A stretch of DNA of 64,000 bases, from IMG/VR virus record IMGVR_UViG_3300012984_000010; one strand, written 5' to 3'. How positions within the stretch are numbered: the stretch's first letter is position 1; every line of letters begins with the position of its first letter. The notes beneath the pieces are model-generated. The model saw only the letters and a program-made list of their open reading frames with translations, was not told the DNA's origin and did no database searches. This document shows positions 31,664 through 63,308 of this stretch, in pieces. Both the position numbers and the translations under genes were made by a program. The stretch is from a virus (taxonomy: Duplodnaviria > Caudoviricetes).

Positions 31664-33472
31664 TTACTCAGGTCTCCTGAAGAAGGTATTCAGCAGCTCG
31701 GGCTGGATATCGTAGTCCGCCAGAATGGCCTGCGCCACGTTGGGGTCCATATCTGTGGGGATCGATTCGATATCGACATCCACCAGAGACATGAGTTCCA
31801 CATTTATTCTAATTTGCGGTTCGAAGCTGCGCAACCTCTCATACTGACCTTTAGTCAAACCAGTGAGGCCTGACCGATAGACGGCATCCACAGACCCATG
31901 AGCTTGGATAAGCGCTTTCAGGACTTTCTTGGGTACACGCGGGACGCCCGGGATATTGTCAGAGTCGTCCCCGTAAAAGGCTCGGAGTTGAACCATCTTG
32001 GACGGCGCGACTCCGATAGTTTCTAGAACGGTGGTAGGGTCGAACAAGATCTCGTTGCGCGAGCCGACCGGCGGAATCAAAAGCGAAGTATCGTCATTGA
32101 CGAGTTGCAACAAATCTTTATCGGTAGAGAACATGACGTTCTTCTGCCGAGCAAGTTCACGCCTAGTCAGGGTGGCGATCACATCGTCCGCCTCCTCTTC
32201 CTTGTTCCAAGCCTGTCGGACACCCAACAATGGGAGGATCTTCTTCAGGACGGTCAGATCTGGAGGATTGGAGTTCCTTTGCGCCTTGTACTCAGAAAAA
32301 CGTGACTTGCGACGCTTCGAGCTGCCGTCCCAAGTTACGTAGAGAGCAGCATCAGGGTACCTCTTCTTGAGGGACCCTAGACTACGAAGAAATCCTACCA
32401 TAGCCCCTGTCGGACGTCCCTTACTGTCCGTAAGATTGGACAATCCAGGTGCGTAGGCACAACGGCACGCCAGATTGTGCCCATCCACGATCACATTTTC
32501 GACCATATCTTTTTCCTGCTTATGTGCCAAAGCCCTAGAAATACTGTCAACATCATCCCAAAGATTGCGAATCCTTTTCAGGATCCCGTCTATCTTGGTC
32601 AACTTGTCTAGCTTGGACTGCAGACTGTTGAATACAATATCACTGTAACGATCATTGTTGAACGCCACATAACTGTACAGAAGTCGGCCCCTAGATTCCC
32701 AATCCCGCATCTTCTTCAAGTGCTCTGTTTTCTCGCGGATTTGCGACAACATCTTTGAGAAAGCGGGGGTATCTTTCAGAAATAGCTGTAGATCGGAGAT
32801 CGCAGTTAGCTTGCGATACCAGATTTCCACATGAGCATAGGTTCGATACGTCTGGACCAAATCATCAAAAGGGGCGGTCCATCGTACTATAGGATAGGCT
32901 GCCATCGCCCAATCACGGAGTGCCGTTAGACGACTATTCTCATTCGATAACGGGGCTCTCTCTTCAACGACAAGGAAGCTCCTAGGAAGCGTCACCAAAC
33001 TCTGTTTGGATCGCAGATCGATCCAGACCTGTACCTTCCCTTCCTCGGGAATCTCCTCGATGACTTTGGCCCCCATGTTTTTATAGGGGCCGGAAGTGAT
33101 GCGGACCCTATCCCCAATACCGATCCCCTGATCTACCAGGAGTCGTATTTGCTCTTTCATTTTGTCTATAGCGGAATCTTCCACTGTGGACAATTTCCTA
33201 GCTCGACCCGTCATACCAGGCAGAGCAAGGACTGACTGGATGTATTTAGTGTTCTCTAGGCGAAAGTATTCCTGAGGAGCTCTGTCAAGCCGAACGAACA
33301 CATACCCTTCCATCAGTATGTGGACGGACCGCGCATCTGCTATTTGAGTGACAGCCGCTGGAACAAACACCTCGGCTCTCTTCAACGAACGGAGGATCGC
33401 CGATTTGATAATCTCAGGATCTTCCTGATCACCCCTAGAGGTGAGCTCCAATACGACCCACGACCCCATCAA
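31664..33472 (-). CDS. NusG (NGN+KOW) domain fused to a 5'-3' exonuclease/flap endonuclease
   Basis: N-terminus WVVL...VFVP...LMEGYVFV...IGDRVRITSGPY; C-terminus IVDGHN, TWDG, EADDVIAT, STDKDLLQL, GDDSDNIPGV. Confidence 0.85.
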   Translation of the reverse strand: MMGSWVVLELTSRGDQEDPEIIKSAILRSLKRAEVFVPAAVTQIADARSVHILMEGYVFVRLDRAPQEYFRLENTKYIQSVLALPGMTGRARKLSTVEDSAIDKMKEQIRLLVDQGIGIGDRVRITSGPYKNMGAKVIEEIPEEGKVQVWIDLRSKQSLVTLPRSFLVVEERAPLSNENSRLTALRDWAMAAYPIVRWTAPFDDLVQTYRTYAHVEIWYRKLTAISDLQLFLKDTPAFSKMLSQIREKTEHLKKMRDWESRGRLLYSYVAFNNDRYSDIVFNSLQSKLDKLTKIDGILKRIRNLWDDVDSISRALAHKQEKDMVENVIVDGHNLACRCAYAPGLSNLTDSKGRPTGAMVGFLRSLGSLKKRYPDAALYVTWDGSSKRRKSRFSEYKAQRNSNPPDLTVLKKILPLLGVRQAWNKEEEADDVIATLTRRELARQKNVMFSTDKDLLQLVNDDTSLLIPPVGSRNEILFDPTTVLETIGVAPSKMVQLRAFYGDDSDNIPGVPRVPKKVLKALIQAHGSVDAVYRSGLTGLTKGQYERLRSFEPQIRINVELMSLVDVDIESIPTDMDPNVAQAILADYDIQPELLNTFFRRPE

Positions 33473-34887
33473 GCCGCCCCTACGCCCAGTATTTTCAGAC
33501 GTTGTTCAAAGCTGATGCGCCACTCTTCTGCGGTTATCAAGTCGGCACGACCCTTAGGGGTGTCCTTGAAAAGGACTCGTGTATCGGCGTCGTGCGTCCC
33601 ACGAGGCATATCCTTCCGTACCGCCTTGTCATCCAAAGACGTAAGAGCCCGCGCATCGTCAGAACCCAAGTTACCCACCTTCCGATCTGAGGGGGGTGGG
33701 CTAGAAGGGCGTTTCGTCTCTGCAACCGGAGGGGTGGGCAGAACAACTTCCACCTTTGCGACAGGAGCTGCGGTTGGAGCGACTGTGGAGGCCGTTTCCT
33801 GTGCTGGAGATGCCTGAACCTGCACCAAGACTGTTTTGGTCGACGTATCTTTGGCTGGTGGCGTTCCAGACACACATGACATTACATCACATAGTAAACG
33901 GAGGCGGGTCGCCTTCGAGGTACCTAGGAAGTGCTCGGCCAGCTGCAACAGGCTATCCCCATATTGGAGTTGCAGCTTCTGGGCTAACGGTTTGTCGACG
34001 TAAGTATAATCCACGTACATGTTGTTAGCCATGCGATAGCTGGTCATGGCTGCCTCTGCCAAACCTTCGTATACTGCCTCAGGTCCAACCTGATCGCAAG
34101 TCATCTCTACGAGTTGAATAGCTGTAGAGGGAGTTCCTAACGAGAGTAAGATCTCATAATATTTCGAAACCACCGACAAATTGAGATACTCTCTCACTGA
34201 GGCGCTGGTTATTTCACCCAGTTGGGCAATCATCTCCAAGGTATTGATGATGTCGCGCACATGGCTGTGCGATGCGTCAATCACCGTCAGTACAGCATCT
34301 TCCTCAAACCCCACCCCTTCTTGGGTCAGAATCCAACACATCCTAGTGAGCAGATCCTCACGAGGGATGGAGCGAATCTTATATTCCTCACACCTAGATC
34401 GGATCGGACCTCTGATCTTTTCTGCCTCAGTTGTGCAAAAAATGCCGACAAATTTGGCTTCCTCGATGGGTTTTAGCAACACATCTTGGGAAGCGGCGCT
34501 CATCCGGTGCATTTCATCGAACAGGTAGATACGTTTTTCTGCACCTTGGATGGCGAAAGGAAGGTCTTTGACGATCTTCCTCATGTGATCGATTGTGCCG
34601 TTTGAAGCCGCGTCCGTCTCCGTAAATGCTTGGCTGGTGTCTGCGAAAACCTCTTTGCAGTTGTTGCAGACATTGCACGGCTCCCCATCCGATTGGAGAT
34701 CCTGGCAAAGCATCGCTCGGGCGAGGATACGGGCAAGGGTCGTTTTTCCTTGCCCGTGCCCGCCGCTAAAGATGTAGCTCGTGTCGAGAGCCGTACCTTT
34801 GACCAACCGCGCCTTGAGAACTAGGGCAGCACTTTCCTGGCCCAATACGTCGGAAAAACGTACTGGGCGGTACCGCTTGTCCCACAT
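33469..34887 (-). CDS. dnaX: DNA polymerase III clamp-loader subunit gamma/tau
   Basis: KRYRPVRFSDVLGQ, GGHGQGKTTLARI, EPCNVCNNC, LFDEMH, IRSRC. Confidence 0.92.
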   Translation of the reverse strand: MWDKRYRPVRFSDVLGQESAALVLKARLVKGTALDTSYIFSGGHGQGKTTLARILARAMLCQDLQSDGEPCNVCNNCKEVFADTSQAFTETDAASNGTIDHMRKIVKDLPFAIQGAEKRIYLFDEMHRMSAASQDVLLKPIEEAKFVGIFCTTEAEKIRGPIRSRCEEYKIRSIPREDLLTRMCWILTQEGVGFEEDAVLTVIDASHSHVRDIINTLEMIAQLGEITSASVREYLNLSVVSKYYEILLSLGTPSTAIQLVEMTCDQVGPEAVYEGLAEAAMTSYRMANNMYVDYTYVDKPLAQKLQLQYGDSLLQLAEHFLGTSKATRLRLLCDVMSCVSGTPPAKDTSTKTVLVQVQASPAQETASTVAPTAAPVAKVEVVLPTPPVAETKRPSSPPPSDRKVGNLGSDDARALTSLDDKAVRKDMPRGTHDADTRVLFKDTPKGRADLITAEEWRISFEQRLKILGVGAA

Positions 34888-41274: not shown

Positions 41275-42509
41275 GAGGCCTCCTTGTGTAGGTGTTGCCC
41301 GCTAATTGGTTGTGTGCACGTCGGACAGACGCCCAAAGCTTCCAGATCCAGAACGATGCTTTCCTCAAGCTTGACGGCGGATGCCAAGTCCTTCTGGACG
41401 GACAGAAAGCTCGCTTCGGTGTTCAGCACTTTGCTGATGAAGGAATTTACCTTCCGTAAGGCGTTCAACTTCGCTTCAAAGAGTGCGGGGTCTTCAGCGT
41501 TCGGCACAGCACCCCAACCAGCCCAACCATCCAGAGTAACCTCCAAGCCGTGCAGTCTGGCCTGCAACGTCTTGATCTCCAACAGCTGCTGGTAGGTCTG
41601 CCTGATACGGGTGTCGTCAGGCAGCTCGATCTTGGAGATTCCGGTCAGGTTGCGTATTTTGGGAGCAATCTCCGACACTCTAGAGTAGAAACCGTCCAAG
41701 TCCGAGTGCTTGTCAGAAGTCTCCCTCAATGCTTCGTGATCAGGCAGGGAGGGTGCAACTGCAGTCGTCAACGTACCGATTGCTTGGGTCAGGCTCACGG
41801 CCTTTGTCATGAAGGAGCTGAGACGTTCGATAGATTCCTGGGACTTCTTCACGTTAGCCAGACGCTCTCGTAGGCCATTAGCAGTAGAGACCACCCCATC
41901 TAGACCGATGTAGATGTCTCCAATCTTTTCCAGAGTCTCAACGTCTTGGGCACGCACCTTACGAGTGGCGACGTCTTCTTTTCGGTCTTTGACCGCCATC
42001 GCCATCGCGACATTGACCTTCTCCAATTGAGCCACGTCGCTCAGAACATCAGCCACCACCGTGCCGGCTTTGTTGAGCAGAAAGATTGGCTCGAACTGAT
42101 CGGGGATCTGAATCAGTTCTTTACCTTCTCCTACCTTTACCTGATCGAACATACCGTCAAGGAACGGAGGGGTGCCGCGTTCCAGACCTTCGTAGATCTG
42201 AGAGGAGCTCCCTTGGACAACAATGTACCGGTTGACGGCATCACCCTTTTCCCAAGTCAATTCAAGAGCAGAGGTCTTGATGCGAACTCGGGAAAAGCAT
42301 TTACATTTCTTGGTGCCACGGATCGCCCTATCGCAGGACGATCCGTGACGGACGAAGTCAGTTCCGACGGCACCTGTGAGAGCCATTTGAACAGCCCTCA
42401 CAAGCGCACTTTTCCCAATATTCGAACGACCCACGATGGCCGAGAATCGATCGATCGCCACAGACGTGTGACGAATAGATTGGAAATCGGTGACTTCTAT
42501 TTCAATCAT
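41271..42509 (-). CDS. SbcC/Rad50 ABC-ATPase, N-terminal half ending at the zinc hook
   Basis: DFQS, Walker A GRSNIGKS, Q-loop IPDQ, coiled coil, terminal CPTC. Confidence 0.85.
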   Translation of the reverse strand: MIEIEVTDFQSIRHTSVAIDRFSAIVGRSNIGKSALVRAVQMALTGAVGTDFVRHGSSCDRAIRGTKKCKCFSRVRIKTSALELTWEKGDAVNRYIVVQGSSSQIYEGLERGTPPFLDGMFDQVKVGEGKELIQIPDQFEPIFLLNKAGTVVADVLSDVAQLEKVNVAMAMAVKDRKEDVATRKVRAQDVETLEKIGDIYIGLDGVVSTANGLRERLANVKKSQESIERLSSFMTKAVSLTQAIGTLTTAVAPSLPDHEALRETSDKHSDLDGFYSRVSEIAPKIRNLTGISKIELPDDTRIRQTYQQLLEIKTLQARLHGLEVTLDGWAGWGAVPNAEDPALFEAKLNALRKVNSFISKVLNTEASFLSVQKDLASAVKLEESIVLDLEALGVCPTCTQPISGQHLHKEAS

Positions 42510-43816
42510 TCGGCAGCTTCGTCGTCCTGACTGTCGTCAGAATCGCTTTCGATCACTTCTTCCACCACAGGGGTGTCCGATACGGAGTCGTCGCTCAAGT
42601 CGTTCCCGCCCAGAGCGTCTTCCACAGTGCTGATCATCGACTCCTCATCAGAGATGTCGTCGACAGGCTCGTCATCCTTGACAGCTACCAAGACTTTGCG
42701 CTTGATTTCCTCAAAGATACCGTGGTTCTTGCACAGATAGTCGCGGAACTTCTCCTTGGAACGTTCCTCATGTTCTCCGTACGATAGAGTGGAACCGCTC
42801 TTCTTGATGATCCTATTGGCTACTCCAGACTCAATCAGGCTGTAGTAGTTGTCGATGCCTTGACCGTACCTGATGAACAGGTCTGTGGTGTGGCCGGCCG
42901 TGCTATCGAGGCGGGTCTTGATGATTTTGGCTTGGGTGTGTTGACCGAAAGGTGAGCGCTTCTTCTTACCAGTGTGACGGTCGGTCACCTCCTTCACCTC
43001 ACTTCGAATCTTGGTGAATTGGATACGAAGGTGGGCAAAGTACTTGAAGGCTTTGCCGCCCGCCGTATTGTGGTCACCAGATGCCTTGGCGGTCGTACTG
43101 ATGACGGCACGATTCTGGTTGATGAACACGAGAGCGGTGCCCTTCGGATTCTTGGACACGTTGGGGTCGTTCAGCCACGTTGCAATCTTGGGCAGGACTT
43201 GGCTCAGAGCTCTTGCCTGAGCACCAATCCTCGCCGGATCGTCGAAGCCCTTTTCCAGCTCTTCTTTCGGAACCATCGCCGCCACCGAGTCAGCGACGAT
43301 CAGGTCTACCTTGGCCTGGAGTCCGATCAGAATCATCTTCCAACCCTCTTCCATGGTGTCAGGTTGGAACAACAGCAGCTTGTCGGGATCGAACGATACC
43401 CCGATTGAACGAGCGTACTTCTGTGAGAGGGCCTTTTCGAAGTCCAGGAACATCGCCAGGCCGCCCTGACGTTGGACCTCTGCTACTGCTTCCAAAGCCG
43501 CAGTCGTCTTGCCTGAGGCTTCCGCCCCAAACAACTCAGTGTAGCAACGACGGGGGTATCCAGGGCAAATGGGCGATTTCCCATCTTCCGCCATGGTGCC
43601 ACCAATCAGGTGGTCGAGAAGGAACGATCCCGAACTCACGAACGGGCGACTCCCTCTGTCCTCGCCTACTATTTTCTTGCCAGTAACTTTGAGTACGGCC
43701 GCTCTAGCAGCGGCGGCATTCTTTGCCGAGTCCTCGCTAGCCTTGGAGCTGGCTTTTGGCGTTACTTTAGTATCTTGACCTTCAGGACCTTCTGGTGGTT
43801 TCTTTCGAACAGCCAT
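42506..43816 (-). CDS. recA: RecA recombinase
   Basis: SSGS..LD, GYPR, GAEASGKTT, FLDFE, DSVAAM, FINQ.R, GGKAFKYFA. Confidence 0.95.
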   Translation of the reverse strand: MAVRKKPPEGPEGQDTKVTPKASSKASEDSAKNAAAARAAVLKVTGKKIVGEDRGSRPFVSSGSFLLDHLIGGTMAEDGKSPICPGYPRRCYTELFGAEASGKTTAALEAVAEVQRQGGLAMFLDFEKALSQKYARSIGVSFDPDKLLLFQPDTMEEGWKMILIGLQAKVDLIVADSVAAMVPKEELEKGFDDPARIGAQARALSQVLPKIATWLNDPNVSKNPKGTALVFINQNRAVISTTAKASGDHNTAGGKAFKYFAHLRIQFTKIRSEVKEVTDRHTGKKKRSPFGQHTQAKIIKTRLDSTAGHTTDLFIRYGQGIDNYYSLIESGVANRIIKKSGSTLSYGEHEERSKEKFRDYLCKNHGIFEEIKRKVLVAVKDDEPVDDISDEESMISTVEDALGGNDLSDDSVSDTPVVEEVIESDSDDSQDDEAAE

Positions 43817-45451: not shown

Positions 45452-46231
45452 TTAGAGATTATCGAAAAGGGACGAATAATCTTCGCCTTCAAGGAATTTG
45501 GCGATGGCTGCTTCGTCTGAGTTGGGCTCTGGATCAGCAGACACCACTACTGGTTGTGGCTTAGGAGTCGCGGTCTCCAACACTGGCTGAACGTCCTCTT
45601 CTTCATCAGTAGTCGCCTGTTCGTTGACCGCCGCTGAAGTTACCTCTAACAGGTTGGTCAACTCGTCATCATCAATAGTGAACCCGTTAGGCATTGTGGA
45701 ATGTGTCCCACCTTGAGGAGTTCTGTATTGTGACTTGCGCGAGGTTTCGGTCTCATCTCCGTAGAAAGAGCCAGTTCTGAGTTCCGCATCGATCAGGCCT
45801 TTCTGCATACGAATCGCACTTACGGTGTTCTCCAATTCTTTGTGTCGATGACGAACCGCCTTATCGACGAACCCCAACTCTTTGACTTGGTTCTTCAGCT
45901 TGACGATCTTTGCACGCTCTTCTCGAAGAATCAGGTTGATCATAGCCCTACGATCCTCAATGTTGGGGAGTCGTGTCACCCTGGCATCATCTGCCAACAG
46001 GCTGTCCGAGCTGATCGAATAGGCCGCCTCAGCCGCATCAAGCTCGGTCTCGATGGCGGACTTTTGACGATGCACCTCATGCACCATGAGACTGGTGGTG
46101 TTGAGCATCCCTCTGGTTTTGGAGATCAGATCCTGCAAGTAAGCTGGACCCATCGCCACGGGGTCTCTCGCCAGCTCAACCACTAGTGTGCCTAGTTGAT
46201 CGTAAATCTCCTCGATACGTGCTTGTTTCAT
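45452..46231 (-). CDS. Coiled-coil hypothetical protein with acidic tail
   Basis: Start moved to ATG 46231 (ATGA overlap with the helicase stop, SD GGAG). Confidence 0.6.
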   Translation of the reverse strand: MKQARIEEIYDQLGTLVVELARDPVAMGPAYLQDLISKTRGMLNTTSLMVHEVHRQKSAIETELDAAEAAYSISSDSLLADDARVTRLPNIEDRRAMINLILREERAKIVKLKNQVKELGFVDKAVRHRHKELENTVSAIRMQKGLIDAELRTGSFYGDETETSRKSQYRTPQGGTHSTMPNGFTIDDDELTNLLEVTSAAVNEQATTDEEEDVQPVLETATPKPQPVVVSADPEPNSDEAAIAKFLEGEDYSSLFDNL

Positions 46232-48426
46232 TGGTTTTCTCCGACAGGTACACTGACAGCCACCAGGTTGTTGGAGATGGCTTTGGAAAGAATGGTGTTG
46301 CGCCGCACAACCTTGTTGTTCTCGATCGCCTTCTGGACTGCGGTTTCCTCCCCAATCAACCACACTCGTTTCTTGGCTCTAGTGACGGCAGTATAGAGCA
46401 GATTGCGTTGAAGCATTCGGCCTTGGGTTTTGACGATCGGCATGATGATGGTGTCGAATTCCGACCCCTGACTCTTGTGGGCTGTAATCGCATAGGCCAA
46501 TCGAAGCTTGATTCCGGCCGTCGCCTCAGGGAAGTTGATGTCCTCCTCCATCTGCGCCCCCAAGCCGTGGATCTTCACCAACAGAGAGTCTCGGTAGACG
46601 TGGCGAAGCTTGCCCACATCACCGTTGTAGACCTTCAGCTTGTAGTCATTCTGAACCACCATGAGGCGATCCCCCTCCCGAAAGCGCTGCTTGCCGTTGG
46701 ACCACTCCTTCGGACCCTCAGGATTGAGAGCATCCCGCAACAACTCGTTGAGATTGTCCACCCCCACCACGCCATCATATTTGGGGGACAGAACTTGGAA
46801 ATTGGCATCTCGGGATTTCAGTTTCACTGCCATTTCCACAATGAGGGCAGCGATCTTGGCTTCATCACTGATGCGGACGAACCGAAATTCAGATTCCTTG
46901 TCCTGAATCGATAGTTCGGGCATCTTCCCAGAGTTGATCTTGTGGGAATTGATCACGATCTCGCCCTGGGCCGCCTGACGGAAGATCTCAGTCAATCTGA
47001 CGTGCGGCATTGCCTTGCAATCGATCAGTTCGCGGAGAACGTTCCCTGGACCAACCGAGGGGAGCTGTGCATCGTCCCCTACGAGAATGATCCTCGTATC
47101 CGATCGGAGGGCACTAAGTAGGCGGTACAGCAGCTCCTGGTCCACCATACTGGCTTCATCCAAAATGACCGCTTCTGTGATGAAATGGTTGTTCTCATTA
47201 TGCCCCCAATTGATCCCGTCGAACCGGAGCGCTCGATGAACCGTATGGGCCTCATGCCCCGTAACCGACGCTAGGCGCTTGGCTGCGATGCCGGTAGGGG
47301 CCATGAGTCTAAAGCTGATCTTGGCGTCCTCCAATAGCCTCACAAGGGCTCGAAGGACGGTTGTTTTACCCGTACCAGGCAGGCCTGTAATGGCCAGGGC
47401 CCGATTCTGGGTCAACAGCTCAACTGCCGTCCTCTGGGCGTCCGAGAGCCGAAGCTTATGGGACCGTTCGTATTCCTGGATGAAGGTAGTAGTGTCGACC
47501 TGCAGGACGGGAGAGGGGTTCAGTCGGGAGGCAATGTAGGCAGCGCTCTTCCGTTCAAAGTCGAATAGTTGAGGCAAGTATAGCCCAGACTCCACATCCA
47601 GCATGGCCGACTTCTGCTTGACCAACTGAACCACTGCCGCGTCATAAGCTTTGGCGGGCTCGGCCAGAGACAGGATGAGGTTGTCCTTCTGAGCCAGTTC
47701 GGAGATGTGCTGCCCCAACTCCCCTCTCCGAAGATAGAGGTGTCCCTGTTTGGATGCTTCCTGAAGGGCCCAAAGCACCATCCCCTGTATGCGTCTAGGA
47801 TCGTTGTGCTTGCAACCCAGATGAATAGCCAGACGATCGATCTTGGAGAAAGAGAACCCCAAGATCTCCATCAGTCGGTAGGGATTGTCCGCAATGATCT
47901 GTGGGGCTTCCGATCCAAAGCGGATCAAGGCAGCCTGTACCTCCATCGCCCCCAACCCGCCTTCCCGTAACAGTACCGACAAGTCTCTGGTAGCTATGAC
48001 GGTGCCCCAGCTCAATACCGCCTTTGCCAAAGCCTCCTTTGAGACTTTCGGATATTTAGTACCTAGGACAACATCTGGCAGTTTGGTCAACTGTTCGAAG
48101 GTGTCTAGCCCGTGAGCATTGACCAGGGCATCCACCAAGGTCAAGTCAGAGAACTCCTTCACACACACGTTCAGGAATTCGACCACCTCTTTAGGTGAAC
48201 TGGCCCACGGCTCCCAAGTCTGAATCAGGAATTCTTTCCCGTACTTCTGGGCGAACTGCCACTTACCCAACAACTTGATCGATATCCCTGGTTTGACCTG
48301 CAACAGCCCATACAGGTTTCCCTTGACTTTGACGTTTCGATGCCCCTCAGCATCAAAGTTGAGGATATAGTACCCATCCTGAGTGTAAACAATCGAATAC
48401 ACTCGTCCAACCAGGATGTCGTTCAT
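46228..48426 (-). CDS. RecD2-like SF1B helicase
   Basis: GLPGTGKTT, DEASM, GDDAQLPSVGPG, LTEIFRQ, AYAITAHKSQGSEF, LYTAVTRAK. Confidence 0.93.
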   Translation of the reverse strand: MNDILVGRVYSIVYTQDGYYILNFDAEGHRNVKVKGNLYGLLQVKPGISIKLLGKWQFAQKYGKEFLIQTWEPWASSPKEVVEFLNVCVKEFSDLTLVDALVNAHGLDTFEQLTKLPDVVLGTKYPKVSKEALAKAVLSWGTVIATRDLSVLLREGGLGAMEVQAALIRFGSEAPQIIADNPYRLMEILGFSFSKIDRLAIHLGCKHNDPRRIQGMVLWALQEASKQGHLYLRRGELGQHISELAQKDNLILSLAEPAKAYDAAVVQLVKQKSAMLDVESGLYLPQLFDFERKSAAYIASRLNPSPVLQVDTTTFIQEYERSHKLRLSDAQRTAVELLTQNRALAITGLPGTGKTTVLRALVRLLEDAKISFRLMAPTGIAAKRLASVTGHEAHTVHRALRFDGINWGHNENNHFITEAVILDEASMVDQELLYRLLSALRSDTRIILVGDDAQLPSVGPGNVLRELIDCKAMPHVRLTEIFRQAAQGEIVINSHKINSGKMPELSIQDKESEFRFVRISDEAKIAALIVEMAVKLKSRDANFQVLSPKYDGVVGVDNLNELLRDALNPEGPKEWSNGKQRFREGDRLMVVQNDYKLKVYNGDVGKLRHVYRDSLLVKIHGLGAQMEEDINFPEATAGIKLRLAYAITAHKSQGSEFDTIIMPIVKTQGRMLQRNLLYTAVTRAKKRVWLIGEETAVQKAIENNKVVRRNTILSKAISNNLVAVSVPVGENQ

Positions 48427-49295
48427 ACCGCCCCAGGCTTCTGCATGTCCCACTCACCAGGGATTTCCTTCCGGTGTTGGACCCACCCTCGGAAGTTGCC
48501 AAGGAACGGGACCTTCCCTTTGCCAATCTCACACTGCCGTGTGTAGTCCCACTTTTCATCTCCCGTCATCGGGCGGGCCGAGTGCTCGAACGGACTCATG
48601 TGACCCCCAGACAAGAGGCGGTTGTACAGCGTGTAGTCCGCCTCTGGGTCTCGGATCCCATCTTGGGTCAGATAGCTGACCCTAGCACAACGGGCAGTAG
48701 ACAGCTTGACCAGTTGATTAAGTGTTAGTTCTCCGAACTCCTCAGGGCGAATGTACGGCAGATGCCACTCACCAGGACCCAACACCTTGGGAGTGCTTCC
48801 TTGGTAGTCATCTTCCATCATGCCGGCGATTCGATCGATCTCCGGCTGAGCCATGAGATTGTGCCGGAGATGGAAGTAATTGTCCCATTCAGTCGCGGTG
48901 CAAACGACAGTGTGCCACATGAACGGCTCCAACAAGCGGTTCGTGATTTGCTTGTGGACGCCTATTTTGAGCAGCATTCCGACATGCTTGACGGCACTGT
49001 CTCGGGCTAGGAGCCATTCCTCTACGGCCAAAGCCTGCTCCTCTGGAGACAGCTCCTCCATGGCCTGCATGCCGCTTTGATTCTTCCCCCAATGGATAGG
49101 AATGAAGGGATCGTTCAGAACCTTTGCTAGTTGCTTCTCAATCGGGATGGCTCGACTAGAGGCCGAGTTCCTGGAGAACACTCGATGAGTGTTAAACTCC
49201 GCCAACACCATTCTTGGGAAGGTTATTTCGAACGTTGTGAGGCGAATGTTCTCAATACTGCACAGGGAATCTGCAATTATTTTACAAGCGTACAT
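48423..49295 (-). CDS. thyX: Flavin-dependent thymidylate synthase (phage type)
   Basis: THRVFSRNSASSRAIP motif and HMSPFEH; start likely 49295. Confidence 0.88.
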   Translation of the reverse strand: MYACKIIADSLCSIENIRLTTFEITFPRMVLAEFNTHRVFSRNSASSRAIPIEKQLAKVLNDPFIPIHWGKNQSGMQAMEELSPEEQALAVEEWLLARDSAVKHVGMLLKIGVHKQITNRLLEPFMWHTVVCTATEWDNYFHLRHNLMAQPEIDRIAGMMEDDYQGSTPKVLGPGEWHLPYIRPEEFGELTLNQLVKLSTARCARVSYLTQDGIRDPEADYTLYNRLLSGGHMSPFEHSARPMTGDEKWDYTRQCEIGKGKVPFLGNFRGWVQHRKEIPGEWDMQKPGAV

Positions 49296-54195: not shown

Positions 54196-55158
54196 TCACT
54201 GATCCTTTACAATGGAAAGCACGGTGGTCTCAACCAGAGTCCTCTTGGATCTGATGGGCCCTCTCATCTGTGAATCTAATCTACATAGTTGGTTGAAATG
54301 CTTTCTCAACTTTGCCAGGGAGTACTTGCGAGCCAGCGGGATCAAGTATTCCTGACAACGCCGTTCTTTCATGTCGAATCGAATGGCTATGATGGACGCA
54401 GAATCCCCCCGTTCCAACATCTGCCTAGTGACCAACACTTGTTCCACACGCTTCAACAGGGCGGCCACAAGGGGGATGTTGGCGTCGTCACCCATCTTCT
54501 CGTACAGGAAGGATAGATCGCGCATCGCAGCTTTGGAATTCCTGCTGATGACGTGGTCTGCTACCTGGAATGGCTCCAACGGCTTGTCTGGAGCCACTAT
54601 TTGCACAACATGCTTCTTGGTTACGAATCCGTCTTTCACCAGATATCGGAGCTTACCTAGTTCATTGTAGATCCCAAACAGGTTGTCTCCCAAGAAATTG
54701 ATCAAAGCATCGATGGCTTCTTCATCCAGATTCAACAAGAGTCTCTGAGCTTCATCTACGATTCGTTTTCGATACCCCTTGATGTCCCATGGAGGCAACT
54801 TCATGTGAGACGAGACGGTCGCCAGTTTAGCTACCGCCGTCCAAGATGCGGGTAATTTCGCCTTGTGGATAACTGCTGTCACTACCGACAGGGAAGAACC
54901 GTCCTCTTCAATCGAGGTCTTCAATAAGCCCTCCAGTTTGACCTCATCCGCCTCATCAATCACGATGTGTCGGCCCACTCCGAACATGGGTTGAGTCTCG
55001 CGCAAGGAAACTATTTGGGATTCCTTGGTCTCGCCACCTTCAAGGAAGCTGGGTTCTCTGCCTTTGAGAGCTTCCTTGTGCGCAGTTACCGCCCGATTCA
55101 GCAGCACTTCCTCATCACCACAAAATACATAGAGGGGGCTTAAGCCTTTTCCAGCCAT
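54196..55158 (-). CDS. holA: DNA polymerase III delta subunit
   Basis: PLYVFCGDEEVL, QPMFG, EAIDAL..LG.NL....ELGKL, FQVAD. Confidence 0.8.
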   Translation of the reverse strand: MAGKGLSPLYVFCGDEEVLLNRAVTAHKEALKGREPSFLEGGETKESQIVSLRETQPMFGVGRHIVIDEADEVKLEGLLKTSIEEDGSSLSVVTAVIHKAKLPASWTAVAKLATVSSHMKLPPWDIKGYRKRIVDEAQRLLLNLDEEAIDALINFLGDNLFGIYNELGKLRYLVKDGFVTKKHVVQIVAPDKPLEPFQVADHVISRNSKAAMRDLSFLYEKMGDDANIPLVAALLKRVEQVLVTRQMLERGDSASIIAIRFDMKERRCQEYLIPLARKYSLAKLRKHFNQLCRLDSQMRGPIRSKRTLVETTVLSIVKDQ

Positions 55159-55159
55159 A

Positions 55160-56119
55160 TCAACGCTCCGAGATAGCCACGCAGAAGCAATTCTTGATCT
55201 GGTACGCCAGATTGGGTTTACTCGGCAGGCGCTCTTGCACTACATTGATTTCTCGACGCAAGGCAGCCAAACGAATCGGTCCTAGTCTTTCCCTCAACAG
55301 TGTCAATTCCTCGTGAAGATCCATGTTGGCTATACGTTCGGGGGCGTAAGATATTAGGTAAAGGTCGGTAACGATACGTTCTAGAAACTGAAAAGCGAGG
55401 ATCAATTCGGCCGATTTCTTCTCGGTTGCCAACTCGTCAATGGCTGAGAACAGAGTAGACAGGTCACCCGTCACGGCTGTTTTGAGAAGAGCCATTACAC
55501 GATTACGAAAAATTATCCGATTCGATCCTAAGTACTGCACTGCGCGGCCAACGGAGCCCTCTGAAAGGCGAGTGTAGACAGTCGCCTTGGTTGAATCGTC
55601 CGTCAGCTGGCTCAATGCGGCGCTAATAAATGGTTCACTCAGTCGATTGTACCGGACTACCCCACATCGAGAGATTATCGTTGGGATCACTTTTTCCAAA
55701 GAATTAGAGATCAGCAAGAACCTCGTATTTTTTGGAGGTTCTTCCAAAACCTTCAGTATGGCGTTGGCCGCCCCCTCGGACAACCGATCAGCACCGTCGA
55801 CAACTATGTAACGACGTCGCGCAACTGAAGGGTGGAGGGTAGCTTCCGTCAATGCTTCGCGCATCTCATCCACCCCAATGTCTTTCCCCAAATCTGGGGT
55901 CAAGATAATGAGGTCCGGATGGGTTCCACGATCCACTTGCAGACACTGGTTGTCGCCAGGGTCCCCGCCAGAGAAGTCTTCTTTGATGGCAGCCATCACT
56001 GAGAAGCGTTTACCTACTCCTTCAGGGCCTACCAACAGCAGGGGTATCTTACATTCGTTCGCCACTACCCTTTTGAGGTAGGCAACGCCCTTATCCTGTT
56101 CCCGAACCTCGCTCAACAA
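55160..56119 (-). CDS. holB: DNA polymerase III delta-prime subunit
   Basis: GPEGVGK, THPD, IGVDEMR, ANAILKVLEEPP, IPTIISRC. Confidence 0.9.
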   Translation of the reverse strand: MLSEVREQDKGVAYLKRVVANECKIPLLLVGPEGVGKRFSVMAAIKEDFSGGDPGDNQCLQVDRGTHPDLIILTPDLGKDIGVDEMREALTEATLHPSVARRRYIVVDGADRLSEGAANAILKVLEEPPKNTRFLLISNSLEKVIPTIISRCGVVRYNRLSEPFISAALSQLTDDSTKATVYTRLSEGSVGRAVQYLGSNRIIFRNRVMALLKTAVTGDLSTLFSAIDELATEKKSAELILAFQFLERIVTDLYLISYAPERIANMDLHEELTLLRERLGPIRLAALRREINVVQERLPSKPNLAYQIKNCFCVAISER

Positions 56120-60291: not shown

Positions 60292-60299
60292 TTACACCG
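60292..60299 (-). promoter_or_regulatory. CGGTGTAA motif upstream of the DEDD exonuclease gene
   Basis: TA at -12/-11 relative to ATG 60282. Confidence 0.6.
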
Positions 60300-60573
60300 G
60301 TCTGGTCAAGTGTTGTAGCCGCTTCAGAACTTCATCTCGCATATTCGGTCCGTACGAGTCCGCGATGGCCGGATCCAACATCGAAAGGATGCGCTCTGTC
60401 TTCATTCCGGCTTCTACAGCTTCGAGGGCGAAGGCAGTCCAATCAGGAATGACTTCACGCTCCTCAAGAAATGAGAACGTCACCTCAAGAGGGACTCCAG
60501 TAGTTTCGTAGAAACGGTAGACTCCAGCTACAACAGTCTTGCCGTCCACCGTCCTGCCAACTACCTCAAGCAT
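60292..60573 (-). CDS. Small protein resembling the AlaRS helical-domain segment
   Basis: YRFYETTGVPLEVT...EERE...DWTAF versus the AlaRS pattern FxLYDTYGFPxDLT...ERxxxVDxxGF. Confidence 0.6.
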   Translation of the reverse strand: MLEVVGRTVDGKTVVAGVYRFYETTGVPLEVTFSFLEEREVIPDWTAFALEAVEAGMKTERILSMLDPAIADSYGPNMRDEVLKRLQHLTRPV

Positions 60574-60925
60574 CTACCTCATCGCCCAAAATCTGGATGA
60601 CCTTATGGTGAGTGACTTTACCGTCTCTGACTCGAAGACCGTCCAAACCCATGCCTGATTCCCACGTCACCACCAAGTCGGCCGTCCCTTCAAAAATAGG
60701 GAGGATTTCCTCCCAAAGAGCCTCTAAGTTACCGCTGCCTGACCCACCCCAAGGGATCCGACGAGGGTATATGAACTTACCCCTAACCTTACCCCACTCG
60801 GTATAGCGTTCGAACGGATGAATCTCTGGATACTCAACCTGAGACTCTAAAGCTTCCAGTGCAGCAATAGAGACTCGGAAGTTGGTGCTTGAGATGATCT
60901 CAATCGATTCAACGTGGCTGCTCAT
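60566..60925 (-). CDS. Hypothetical protein
   Basis: 119 aa ORF overlapping its neighbours. Confidence 0.55.
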   Translation of the reverse strand: MSSHVESIEIISSTNFRVSIAALEALESQVEYPEIHPFERYTEWGKVRGKFIYPRRIPWGGSGSGNLEALWEEILPIFEGTADLVVTWESGMGLDGLRVRDGKVTHHKVIQILGDEVDA

Positions 60926-61088
60926 AAGATTTCTTCATGTTTTGAATGAACTCTAGGGCTTCGGAAGACTCGAACTTAGTGTAATCCGCGTTAATCAAGA
61001 TTGTATTCTCTCGTCCGAAGACTGCTCGTAGCCTTCTTCCTAGTTCAGTGCGGATCGGGATATTCTGCAGAGCAGGACGAGACCTCAT
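60909..61088 (-). CDS. 59-aa protein resembling the DNA Pol I motif-2/motif-A segment (not in ORF track)
   Basis: Manual translation MRSRPALQNIPIRTELGRRLRAVFGRENTILINADYTKFE...; ATGA overlap with the upstream stop. Confidence 0.75.
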   Translation of the reverse strand: MRSRPALQNIPIRTELGRRLRAVFGRENTILINADYTKFESSEALEFIQNMKKSYEQPR

Positions 61089-61396
61089 CTGAACAACAAC
61101 TTGAGCAGATAAAGGACCCCGCCCAATCCGCCCAAGAACATGAATACAGGCACCACGATGCGAATCAACTGTCCAGCCCGTTCAACGCTAGCGTCATAGT
61201 CGTTGAACGCTGCATTGAACATCGCCAACGCTTTCGAGACATCCTGTGCTCTGAGAGCTTTGCCAATCGCTTCCAAAGCGACAGTTTGATTTACGGTAGG
61301 AGCGTAACGCTCCATCCATTCTTGGAATCCTTCCAAGTCTGACTCTACAATCAGTTGTCGGCCGCTCGAAAGAACCTCTGAAGACAGTCTAGCCAT
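61085..61396 (-). CDS. Small protein with C-terminal transmembrane helix
   Basis: Hydrophobic C-terminus; CGGTGTA motif upstream. Confidence 0.6.
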   Translation of the reverse strand: MARLSSEVLSSGRQLIVESDLEGFQEWMERYAPTVNQTVALEAIGKALRAQDVSKALAMFNAAFNDYDASVERAGQLIRIVVPVFMFLGGLGGVLYLLKLLFR

Positions 61397-61712
61397 GCGG
61401 GTGCTTTACACCGAGCGTCCTTGATTTCAGCCACTTGGATTTGGGTTTGATCCACAACAGAAAAGGGGCCGCCATCGAAAGAGGCCAACTGACCAGAGCT
61501 GTGAATCCCAATAGGTTGGGGTCTAGATGCGGTCCTACAAGCACGATGAAGCCGATCAGGAGCGCGGTCGTGAGGATGACGGAAGGCACCCAAATCTTCC
61601 CCACATAGGCTTGATAGTCCCGCTCATCTTGACGTTGTTCAGGCGTCAGAGAATTGAACCAACATGCTCGGCGTTCACGAGCTTCAGCATTTCGACGAGA
61701 CCACCCTACCAA
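61389..61712 (-). CDS. Small two-TM membrane protein (start uncertain)
   Basis: Two hydrophobic segments; the 5' part of the track ORF (to 61841) overlaps another gene. Confidence 0.5.
   Translation of the reverse strand: MVGWSRRNAEARERRACWFNSLTPEQRQDERDYQAYVGKIWVPSVILTTALLIGFIVLVGPHLDPNLLGFTALVSWPLSMAAPFLLWIKPKSKWLKSRTLGVKHPHG
61406..61413 (-). promoter_or_regulatory. CGGTGTAA motif
   Basis: TA at -12/-11 relative to ATG 61396. Confidence 0.6.
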
Positions 61713-62662: not shown

Positions 62663-63308
62663 CACCCTGACCTACACCGAAGTCTTGCCTAGCATCAGGT
62701 AATTTACAGGCAAAGTCCAGCTGAATGCCCGTCAATCTACGCAAATCTGCTAAAACTAGTTCCATCTCCTCCACTGTGGCATTCGATTTCAAGGTATTAG
62801 CACGGTAAGAGATAACTCTGATGTTACCTCGTGTATACCCACCATGTGGATCAATACGATCTACACTTGGACTATCCGGCAATGGTCCCTGTCGGCCGCG
62901 ACGAGGAGATATCACCAAAGGGATTCCAAGGACGGGGCAAATCGAAGGTATTTGGATGTCTTCAACCACTAGATCGAAAGGTAAGGCTTCCTTCTTGGCC
63001 CTCGCTCTCAATCTCCACAGGATTTCCAATTCAGGGCGAGTTTGTCGCAGATTTTGGTAAAAGTCCTGATTGTACGCGATGATTTGAGCCTTATGTGTCT
63101 GATAGTACAAAGCATGTGCAGCAGCCGCCTTGGACTTATTCTTCTCTCGGTACTCCTTCCGTTGAGGGGCATCCGCGGCTCTTTTTTCTGCTTCACAGGA
63201 TTTGCATCTGGACCTAAATCGACCCTTAGCCTCCTCTCCTCGCGGGTAAAAAGCGCCTGTAGGTTTAGTCTGTTTACAACTGGAGCATACTTTCGAGGGC
63301 ACCCTCAT
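62646..63308 (-). mobile_element. Free-standing HNH-type (His-Me finger) endonuclease
   Basis: CSSC...CKSC zinc finger; CPVLG...SVDRID..GY..GNIRVIS..AN. Start likely ATG 63308; ORF track starts at 63326. Confidence 0.82.
62672..62679 (-). promoter_or_regulatory. CGGTGTAG motif
   Basis: TA at -12/-11 relative to ATG 62662. Confidence 0.6.

Follow-up and report, generated by a model that had tools for sequence, protein, structure and literature searches.

Bacterial DNA polymerase I (PF00476, TIGR00593) is a protein of ~900 residues in which motif 2, the J-helix and motif A stand alongside nuclease domains, thumb, fingers and motifs B and C. Part of this region is basic and touches the primer duplex. 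The gene described here – a mini-PolA gene encoding 59 aa – has the sequence of motif 2, the J-helix and motif A in common with that enzyme, but copies only ~40 of its residues: the nuclease domains, thumb, fingers and motifs B and C are absent, and the core that is copied is the basic segment. A short stand-alone gene with the same two motifs is present in the Caulobacter phage phiCbK (gp221, AFU87053.1, "putative Pol I DNA polymerase, palm domain"; PHROG 12116); the phiCbK genome paper does not discuss it (PMC3556154). The stretch of DNA analysed (64,000 nucleotides, hereafter the window) lies within a 142-kb virus record, estimated to be 30% complete, of a huge soil phage.

The 59-aa open reading frame with Pol I motifs that the first-pass annotation had reported is indeed encoded on the minus strand of the window (Table 1). 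Its start codon (ATG, 61088-61086) and the stop codon of the upstream ORF (TGA, 61087-61085) share nucleotides, a true ATGA as claimed, and the 3' end of the gene is shared with the start of the downstream ORF. Searches of Pfam, PHROG and record profiles gave no polymerase match to either neighbor, in agreement with the earlier statement that the flanking genes are not polymerase fragments. The frame is intact, coupled to its neighbors and called by public gene callers on 8 contigs that encode the identical protein, the longest being 475,623 bp. Homologues of the upstream ORF are present in two relatives, with no mini gene after them. The heptamer CGGTGTA occurs 13 times in the window compared to 3.5 times in shuffled sequence, and its sites (for example 60293-60299, 61407-61413 and 62673-62679) lie ~11 nt before start codons, in relatives too; the site ahead of the 103-aa ORF may serve as the promoter of the block formed by the 103-, 59- and 119-aa genes.

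Table 1. Features of the mini-PolA locus (positions in the window)
Feature	Position	Strand	Remarks
Mini-PolA gene	60909..61088	-	59 aa; ORF, Pfam, PHROG and TIGR00593 evidence
Motif 2 / J-helix segment, residues 5-24	61017..61076	-	Corresponds to E. coli P674-F693; core in all family members
Motif A segment, residues 32-40	60969..60995	-	D35 = D705, Y36 = Y706, E40 = E710
Free helical tail, residues 41-59	60912..60968	-	Unlike Pol I
Upstream 103-aa ORF	61085..61396	-	Hydrophobic C-terminal stretch; ATGA-coupled to mini gene
Downstream 119-aa orphan ORF	60566..60925	-	17-nt overlap with mini gene
CGGTGTA element	61407..61413	-	Putative phage promoter of block; ends 11 nt before ATG of 103-aa ORF

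Residues 3-40 match Pfam DNA_pol_A (E 6.4e-8; profile positions 124-163 of 381) with 32.4 bits, under the cut-off of 34.3; TIGR00593 (E 2.5e-8; profile positions 635-672) and PHROG 12116 (a family of 81 positions) are matched as well. The match covers Pol I residues ~674-710 (E. coli numbering), and the profile of the family described below aligns with residues 664-720 of E. coli Pol I and 569-626 of Taq, from motif 2 through the J-helix region to where motif A begins. The string QNIP.R is found once when the 142-kb record is read in all six frames. Judged by these matches, the likeness to Pol I is not due to chance. Motif A is present with the position of the catalytic aspartate: D35 and E40 we take to be the counterparts of catalytic D705 and of E710. 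The equivalents of Y706 and E710 are kept, S707, Q708 and R712 are replaced and R668 is missing. Neither motifs B and C nor thumb, fingers or a complete palm were found (profile coverage 124-163 of 381; no palm fold predicted), and a protein of this sequence cannot catalyse.

Similarly sized homologues in phages, on which the first-pass interpretation hinged, do exist. A direct homologue search returned the mini-protein alone and a single-query locus search returned only full-length PolAs, but a search of 1.84 billion representatives yielded nine unrelated proteins of 55-67 aa with the same span, the genomic neighbors of which, when looked up, were small unrelated genes. Cultured Caulobacter phages have a version of 78-83 aa (phiCbK gp221) that adds a motif-C-like hairpin. 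Many database matches of 60-118 aa were left out because they are pieces of ordinary bacterial polA that arose through assembly or a frameshift, and a pattern scan for some variants in 185,579 bacterial genomes gave no convincing mini. The family alignment, built from the homologue search plus pattern scans, contains 33 distinct members. The 27 that are unfused measure 53-81 aa (median 63), start 6-27 residues before Q677 and end 12-40 after D705: their boundaries recur. The protein in the window falls within this range of lengths, has the core motif near its N-terminus, ends shortly after motif A and has no polA piece nearby; at 32-47% identity to other members it is a divergent member of the family. 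In a tree of 59 columns, 21 of the 33 minis (including this copy) form a weak group (79/88), the rest being unresolved.

Among 24 loci found by the first motif alone, 15 also contain the second motif (vs. 1% under the null) and nine keep only the first. The segment is also found fused to Zn-ribbon-like tails, the A1S_2505 domain and others: at L103:2456-3049 the first motif alone stands in front of an A1S_2505-family domain. At L163:964-1182 a mini with an N-terminal motif resembling a beta-clamp-binding motif (QLSLF) lies downstream of an SSB-like gene; at L053:1826-2647 a single frame has the order permuted, a fingers-region PolA piece preceding the motif-2 piece; and at L032:2126-2731 a phage ORF ends in a fused, nearly undiverged bacterial-type polA piece, the genome encoding a PolA of its own as well (a recent capture or a chimeric assembly). 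No neighboring gene is shared across mini lineages. Of viral matches to the mini motif, 17 of 92 (~13 lineages) are stand-alone, compared to none of the 117 motif B and none of the 106 motif C matches listed (Fisher P = 3e-10), a basis on which rates rather than absolute numbers are to be compared. A complete scan for host-like motif B gave 11 matches, and the eight that were read all lie within long frames.

Comparison of the minis with 86 full-length PolAs – in which QNIPxR and the anchor columns are biased by the search pattern – shows that minis keep P674, Q677-T683, G686, R690, D705, Y/F706, E710 and mostly R712, and lose N675, S671, A715 and often the TGR of R668. S707 falls from 98% in full-length PolAs to 43% in minis and Q708 from 99% to 17%. 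The copy in the window retains nearly every residue that is invariant in the family. AlphaFold predicts two helices and no compact fold for this copy (pLDDT 77, pTM 0.36), and two helices plus a hairpin for gp221 (pTM 0.40). Foldseek found no structural match for either model, the ESM Atlas none at 0.9, and PADLOC gave no match.

Evolutionary rates show purifying selection on the family in Caulobacter phages and three other lineages, and not in one. The dN/dS of the Caulobacter minis is 0.17-0.32; at deeper distances it is ~0.3, compared to 0.46-0.65 for the adjacent GcrA-like gene, and within the motif columns pN is 0.05-0.08 and pS 0.31-0.41. Two further lineages have pN/pS values of 0.024/0.115 and 0.007/0.074, and another has one synonymous and no replacement change. 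The exception is a pair of near-identical phages (L242/L243:3001-3180) whose minis differ by seven replacements vs. two synonymous changes, clustered in the core motif: this is either decay or diversification. All copies of the gene in the window are identical across strains, so the dN/dS comparison that the first-pass annotation had suggested speaks at the level of the family, where values are well below 1 in Caulobacter phages and low in the three other lineages. A DNA-level element was rejected because the synonymous divergence of the mini equals that of the neighboring gene.

The relation of the mini to a complete polymerase can be judged from related genomes. In each of five related huge phages (252-452 kb of sequence), PolA is encoded as one continuous frame of 935-1353 aa with a strongly diverged version of the mini's segment; DnaE, PolB and the mini were not found in them, and none of the 11 relatives searched has the mini gene. 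From the closest relative, whose GroEL is 78% identical, the 103-, 59- and 119-aa genes are missing as a set of three. Given the continuous PolA of the relatives and this joint absence, the mini is an accessory gene rather than a piece of the replicase; the phage would, by analogy with its relatives, have a separate polA of its own. Profile search of the 142-kb record found no other polA piece, and no DnaE core was found there. The window itself encodes bacterial-type clamp-loader subunits, RecA and RecD2 (33469-34887, 54196-56119, 42506-43816, 46228-48453), in a phage clade in which PolA rather than DnaE is the replicase of the relatives, and a 5'-3' exonuclease of Pol I type joined to a NusG domain (31664-33472). 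The split polA that the first-pass annotation had named as fatal to its reading was not encountered in the 142-kb record. That the mini is one piece of such a gene, with the other pieces elsewhere, strikes us as very improbable: the record searched is only 30% of the genome, and phage polA genes interrupted near the mini's motif exist, but the halves of those genes are adjacent, as minis and polA are not, and the relatives' uninterrupted PolA has its own version of the segment. At eight loci (L038, L039, L044, L048, L075, L097, L125 and L196) polA frames stop just past the J-helix segment and restart at motif A 300-650 nt further on; the gap between the two motifs that the mini copies is a probable hotspot for introns or insertions in phage polA. 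An origin by duplication of polA within the phage was rejected, since the mini scores 29-43 against the PolAs of relatives and a median of 98 against bacterial Pol I; likewise, for each of the six minis tested, bacterial Pol I gives a higher score than the PolA of the mini's own phage. A full, unlinked PolA is encoded in all eight mini genomes with a detectable replicase, which would suit a mini that serves its phage's PolA as accessory subunit or regulator, but because PolA makes up 63% of phage DNA polymerases (PMC11348598) this co-occurrence is only suggestive (0.63^8 ~ 0.03). Such a role is distinctly unlikely: minis are never linked to polA, they share one consensus while the cognate PolAs are very unlike (from T7-like to frames of 1,400 aa), and a PolA of this kind occurs in the five close huge phages, which have no mini.

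A snippet under selection in many unrelated phages, beside a complete polymerase of their own, is probably a working, non-enzymatic small protein. The two roles raised for it by the first-pass annotation – DNA-binding mini-domain, or decoy/inhibitor – fare differently. If the mini acted on nucleic acid or the replisome, it would bind primer-template junctions, nicks or gaps and compete with host Pol I. The invariant core is the basic primer-contacting segment of Pol I. Its charge of 0 to +4, the nine of 24 loci that retain the first segment alone and the clamp-binding-like motif at L163 are also in keeping with this role, as is the part that Taq R587 plays in holding the incoming nucleotide (bioRxiv 2025.03.26.645540). 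However, there is neither thumb nor palm to place these residues, the retained acidic D705 and E710 are left unaccounted for, and the absence of a compact predicted fold, frequent loss of R668 and net charges of -6 to +9 for whole proteins weaken the case for a DNA-binding domain, so that we consider action on DNA or the replisome unlikely. It is about equally unlikely that the copy in the window is a neutral or slowly decaying remnant of polA captured in the past, its frame maintained by nothing but overlap with its neighbors. Its divergence (32-47% identity, with R712, S707 and Q708 replaced), its absence from relatives and the clustered replacements in L242/L243 would fit a relic, and the near-intact piece fused to a phage ORF at L032 indicates that polA captures do occur; nonetheless the gene has nearly all family-invariant residues, its frame is intact and coupled, a putative promoter precedes the block, purifying selection is seen in four other lineages, and other PolA motifs are not seen stand-alone among the matches listed. 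For the family, then, the earlier view of a retained polymerase-derived peptide rather than random decay holds, given the short homologues, recurring boundaries and purifying selection.

Of the two roles first proposed, decoy is the likelier, and our tentative reading – short of an even bet – is that the mini is bait for host proteins that recognize this surface of the polymerase. According to this hypothesis the mini, flexible when free, would display the most conserved residues lining the active site of family A polymerases and bind a host protein that reads that surface, be it a defence receptor that senses polymerases or an effector or guard directed against Pol I; the sensor would remain untriggered and phage replication would be protected in some hosts. 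Bait is favored because the acidic residues of the active site persist in the absence of a scaffold (D705 and E710 remain while S707, Q708 and A715 are lost), because the gene is patchy and portable, and because PolA-sensing systems exist. The accessory gene has no conserved neighbor, its boundaries recur, and its stand-alone rate exceeds that of motifs B and C among the matches listed. Purifying selection in several lineages, retention of the second motif in 15 of 24 loci and the suggestive co-occurrence with PolA in eight of eight genomes also count towards bait. Avs19 senses the core polymerase domain (PMC13581612), and a review reports that aRES binds T7 polymerase (PMC13728456), a finding given only there and not mentioned in the text of the aRES preprint. 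Several observations point the other way. The catalytic aspartate is dispensable for activation of EcAvs19, and what Avs sensors read is a folded surface (PMC13581612), whereas minis have no compact predicted fold (pTM 0.36-0.40); that minis are closer to bacterial Pol I than to their own PolA is awkward for a bait mimicking the phage enzyme; and the copy in the window lacks R668 and R712. Borvo is an unlikely target, since escape mutations map to the proofreading (exonuclease) domain and not to the mini segment (bioRxiv 2022.08.27.505566). The more general proposition, that phages have repeatedly made the most conserved active-site epitope of Pol I into a portable bait that jams polymerase-sensing receptors or Pol I guards, is more doubtful still: if true, there is a class of anti-defence proteins built of conserved-motif fragments, which could be used as hooks for finding the sensors. 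Were the mini a bait, it would identify which polymerase surface is read by bacterial defences and provide a counter to PolA-sensing systems; should it instead bind substrate or partners of Pol I, a natural peptide would be at hand as a lead against an enzyme conserved in bacteria.

We met no account of the family in the papers searched, and to that extent it is undescribed; single members are annotated as DNA polymerase. A widespread family under selection escaped notice because its members are mislabelled in this way and were filtered from a PolA census, which removed sequences under 350 aa (PMC10201439). The literature searched likewise contains no fragment decoy against Avs19, Borvo or aRES. 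What these candidate targets respond to is family A polymerases, and every informative mini-carrying phage encodes one. Since phiCbK and Caulobacter are a cultured phage-host pair, the family is directly testable through gp221. Like the mini, gp221 is overlap-coupled to unrelated genes, and it lies far from phiCbK's own PolA; the two differ in that gp221 has 81 aa and a motif-C-like hairpin with HDE, whereas the mini has 59 aa and ends without the hairpin.
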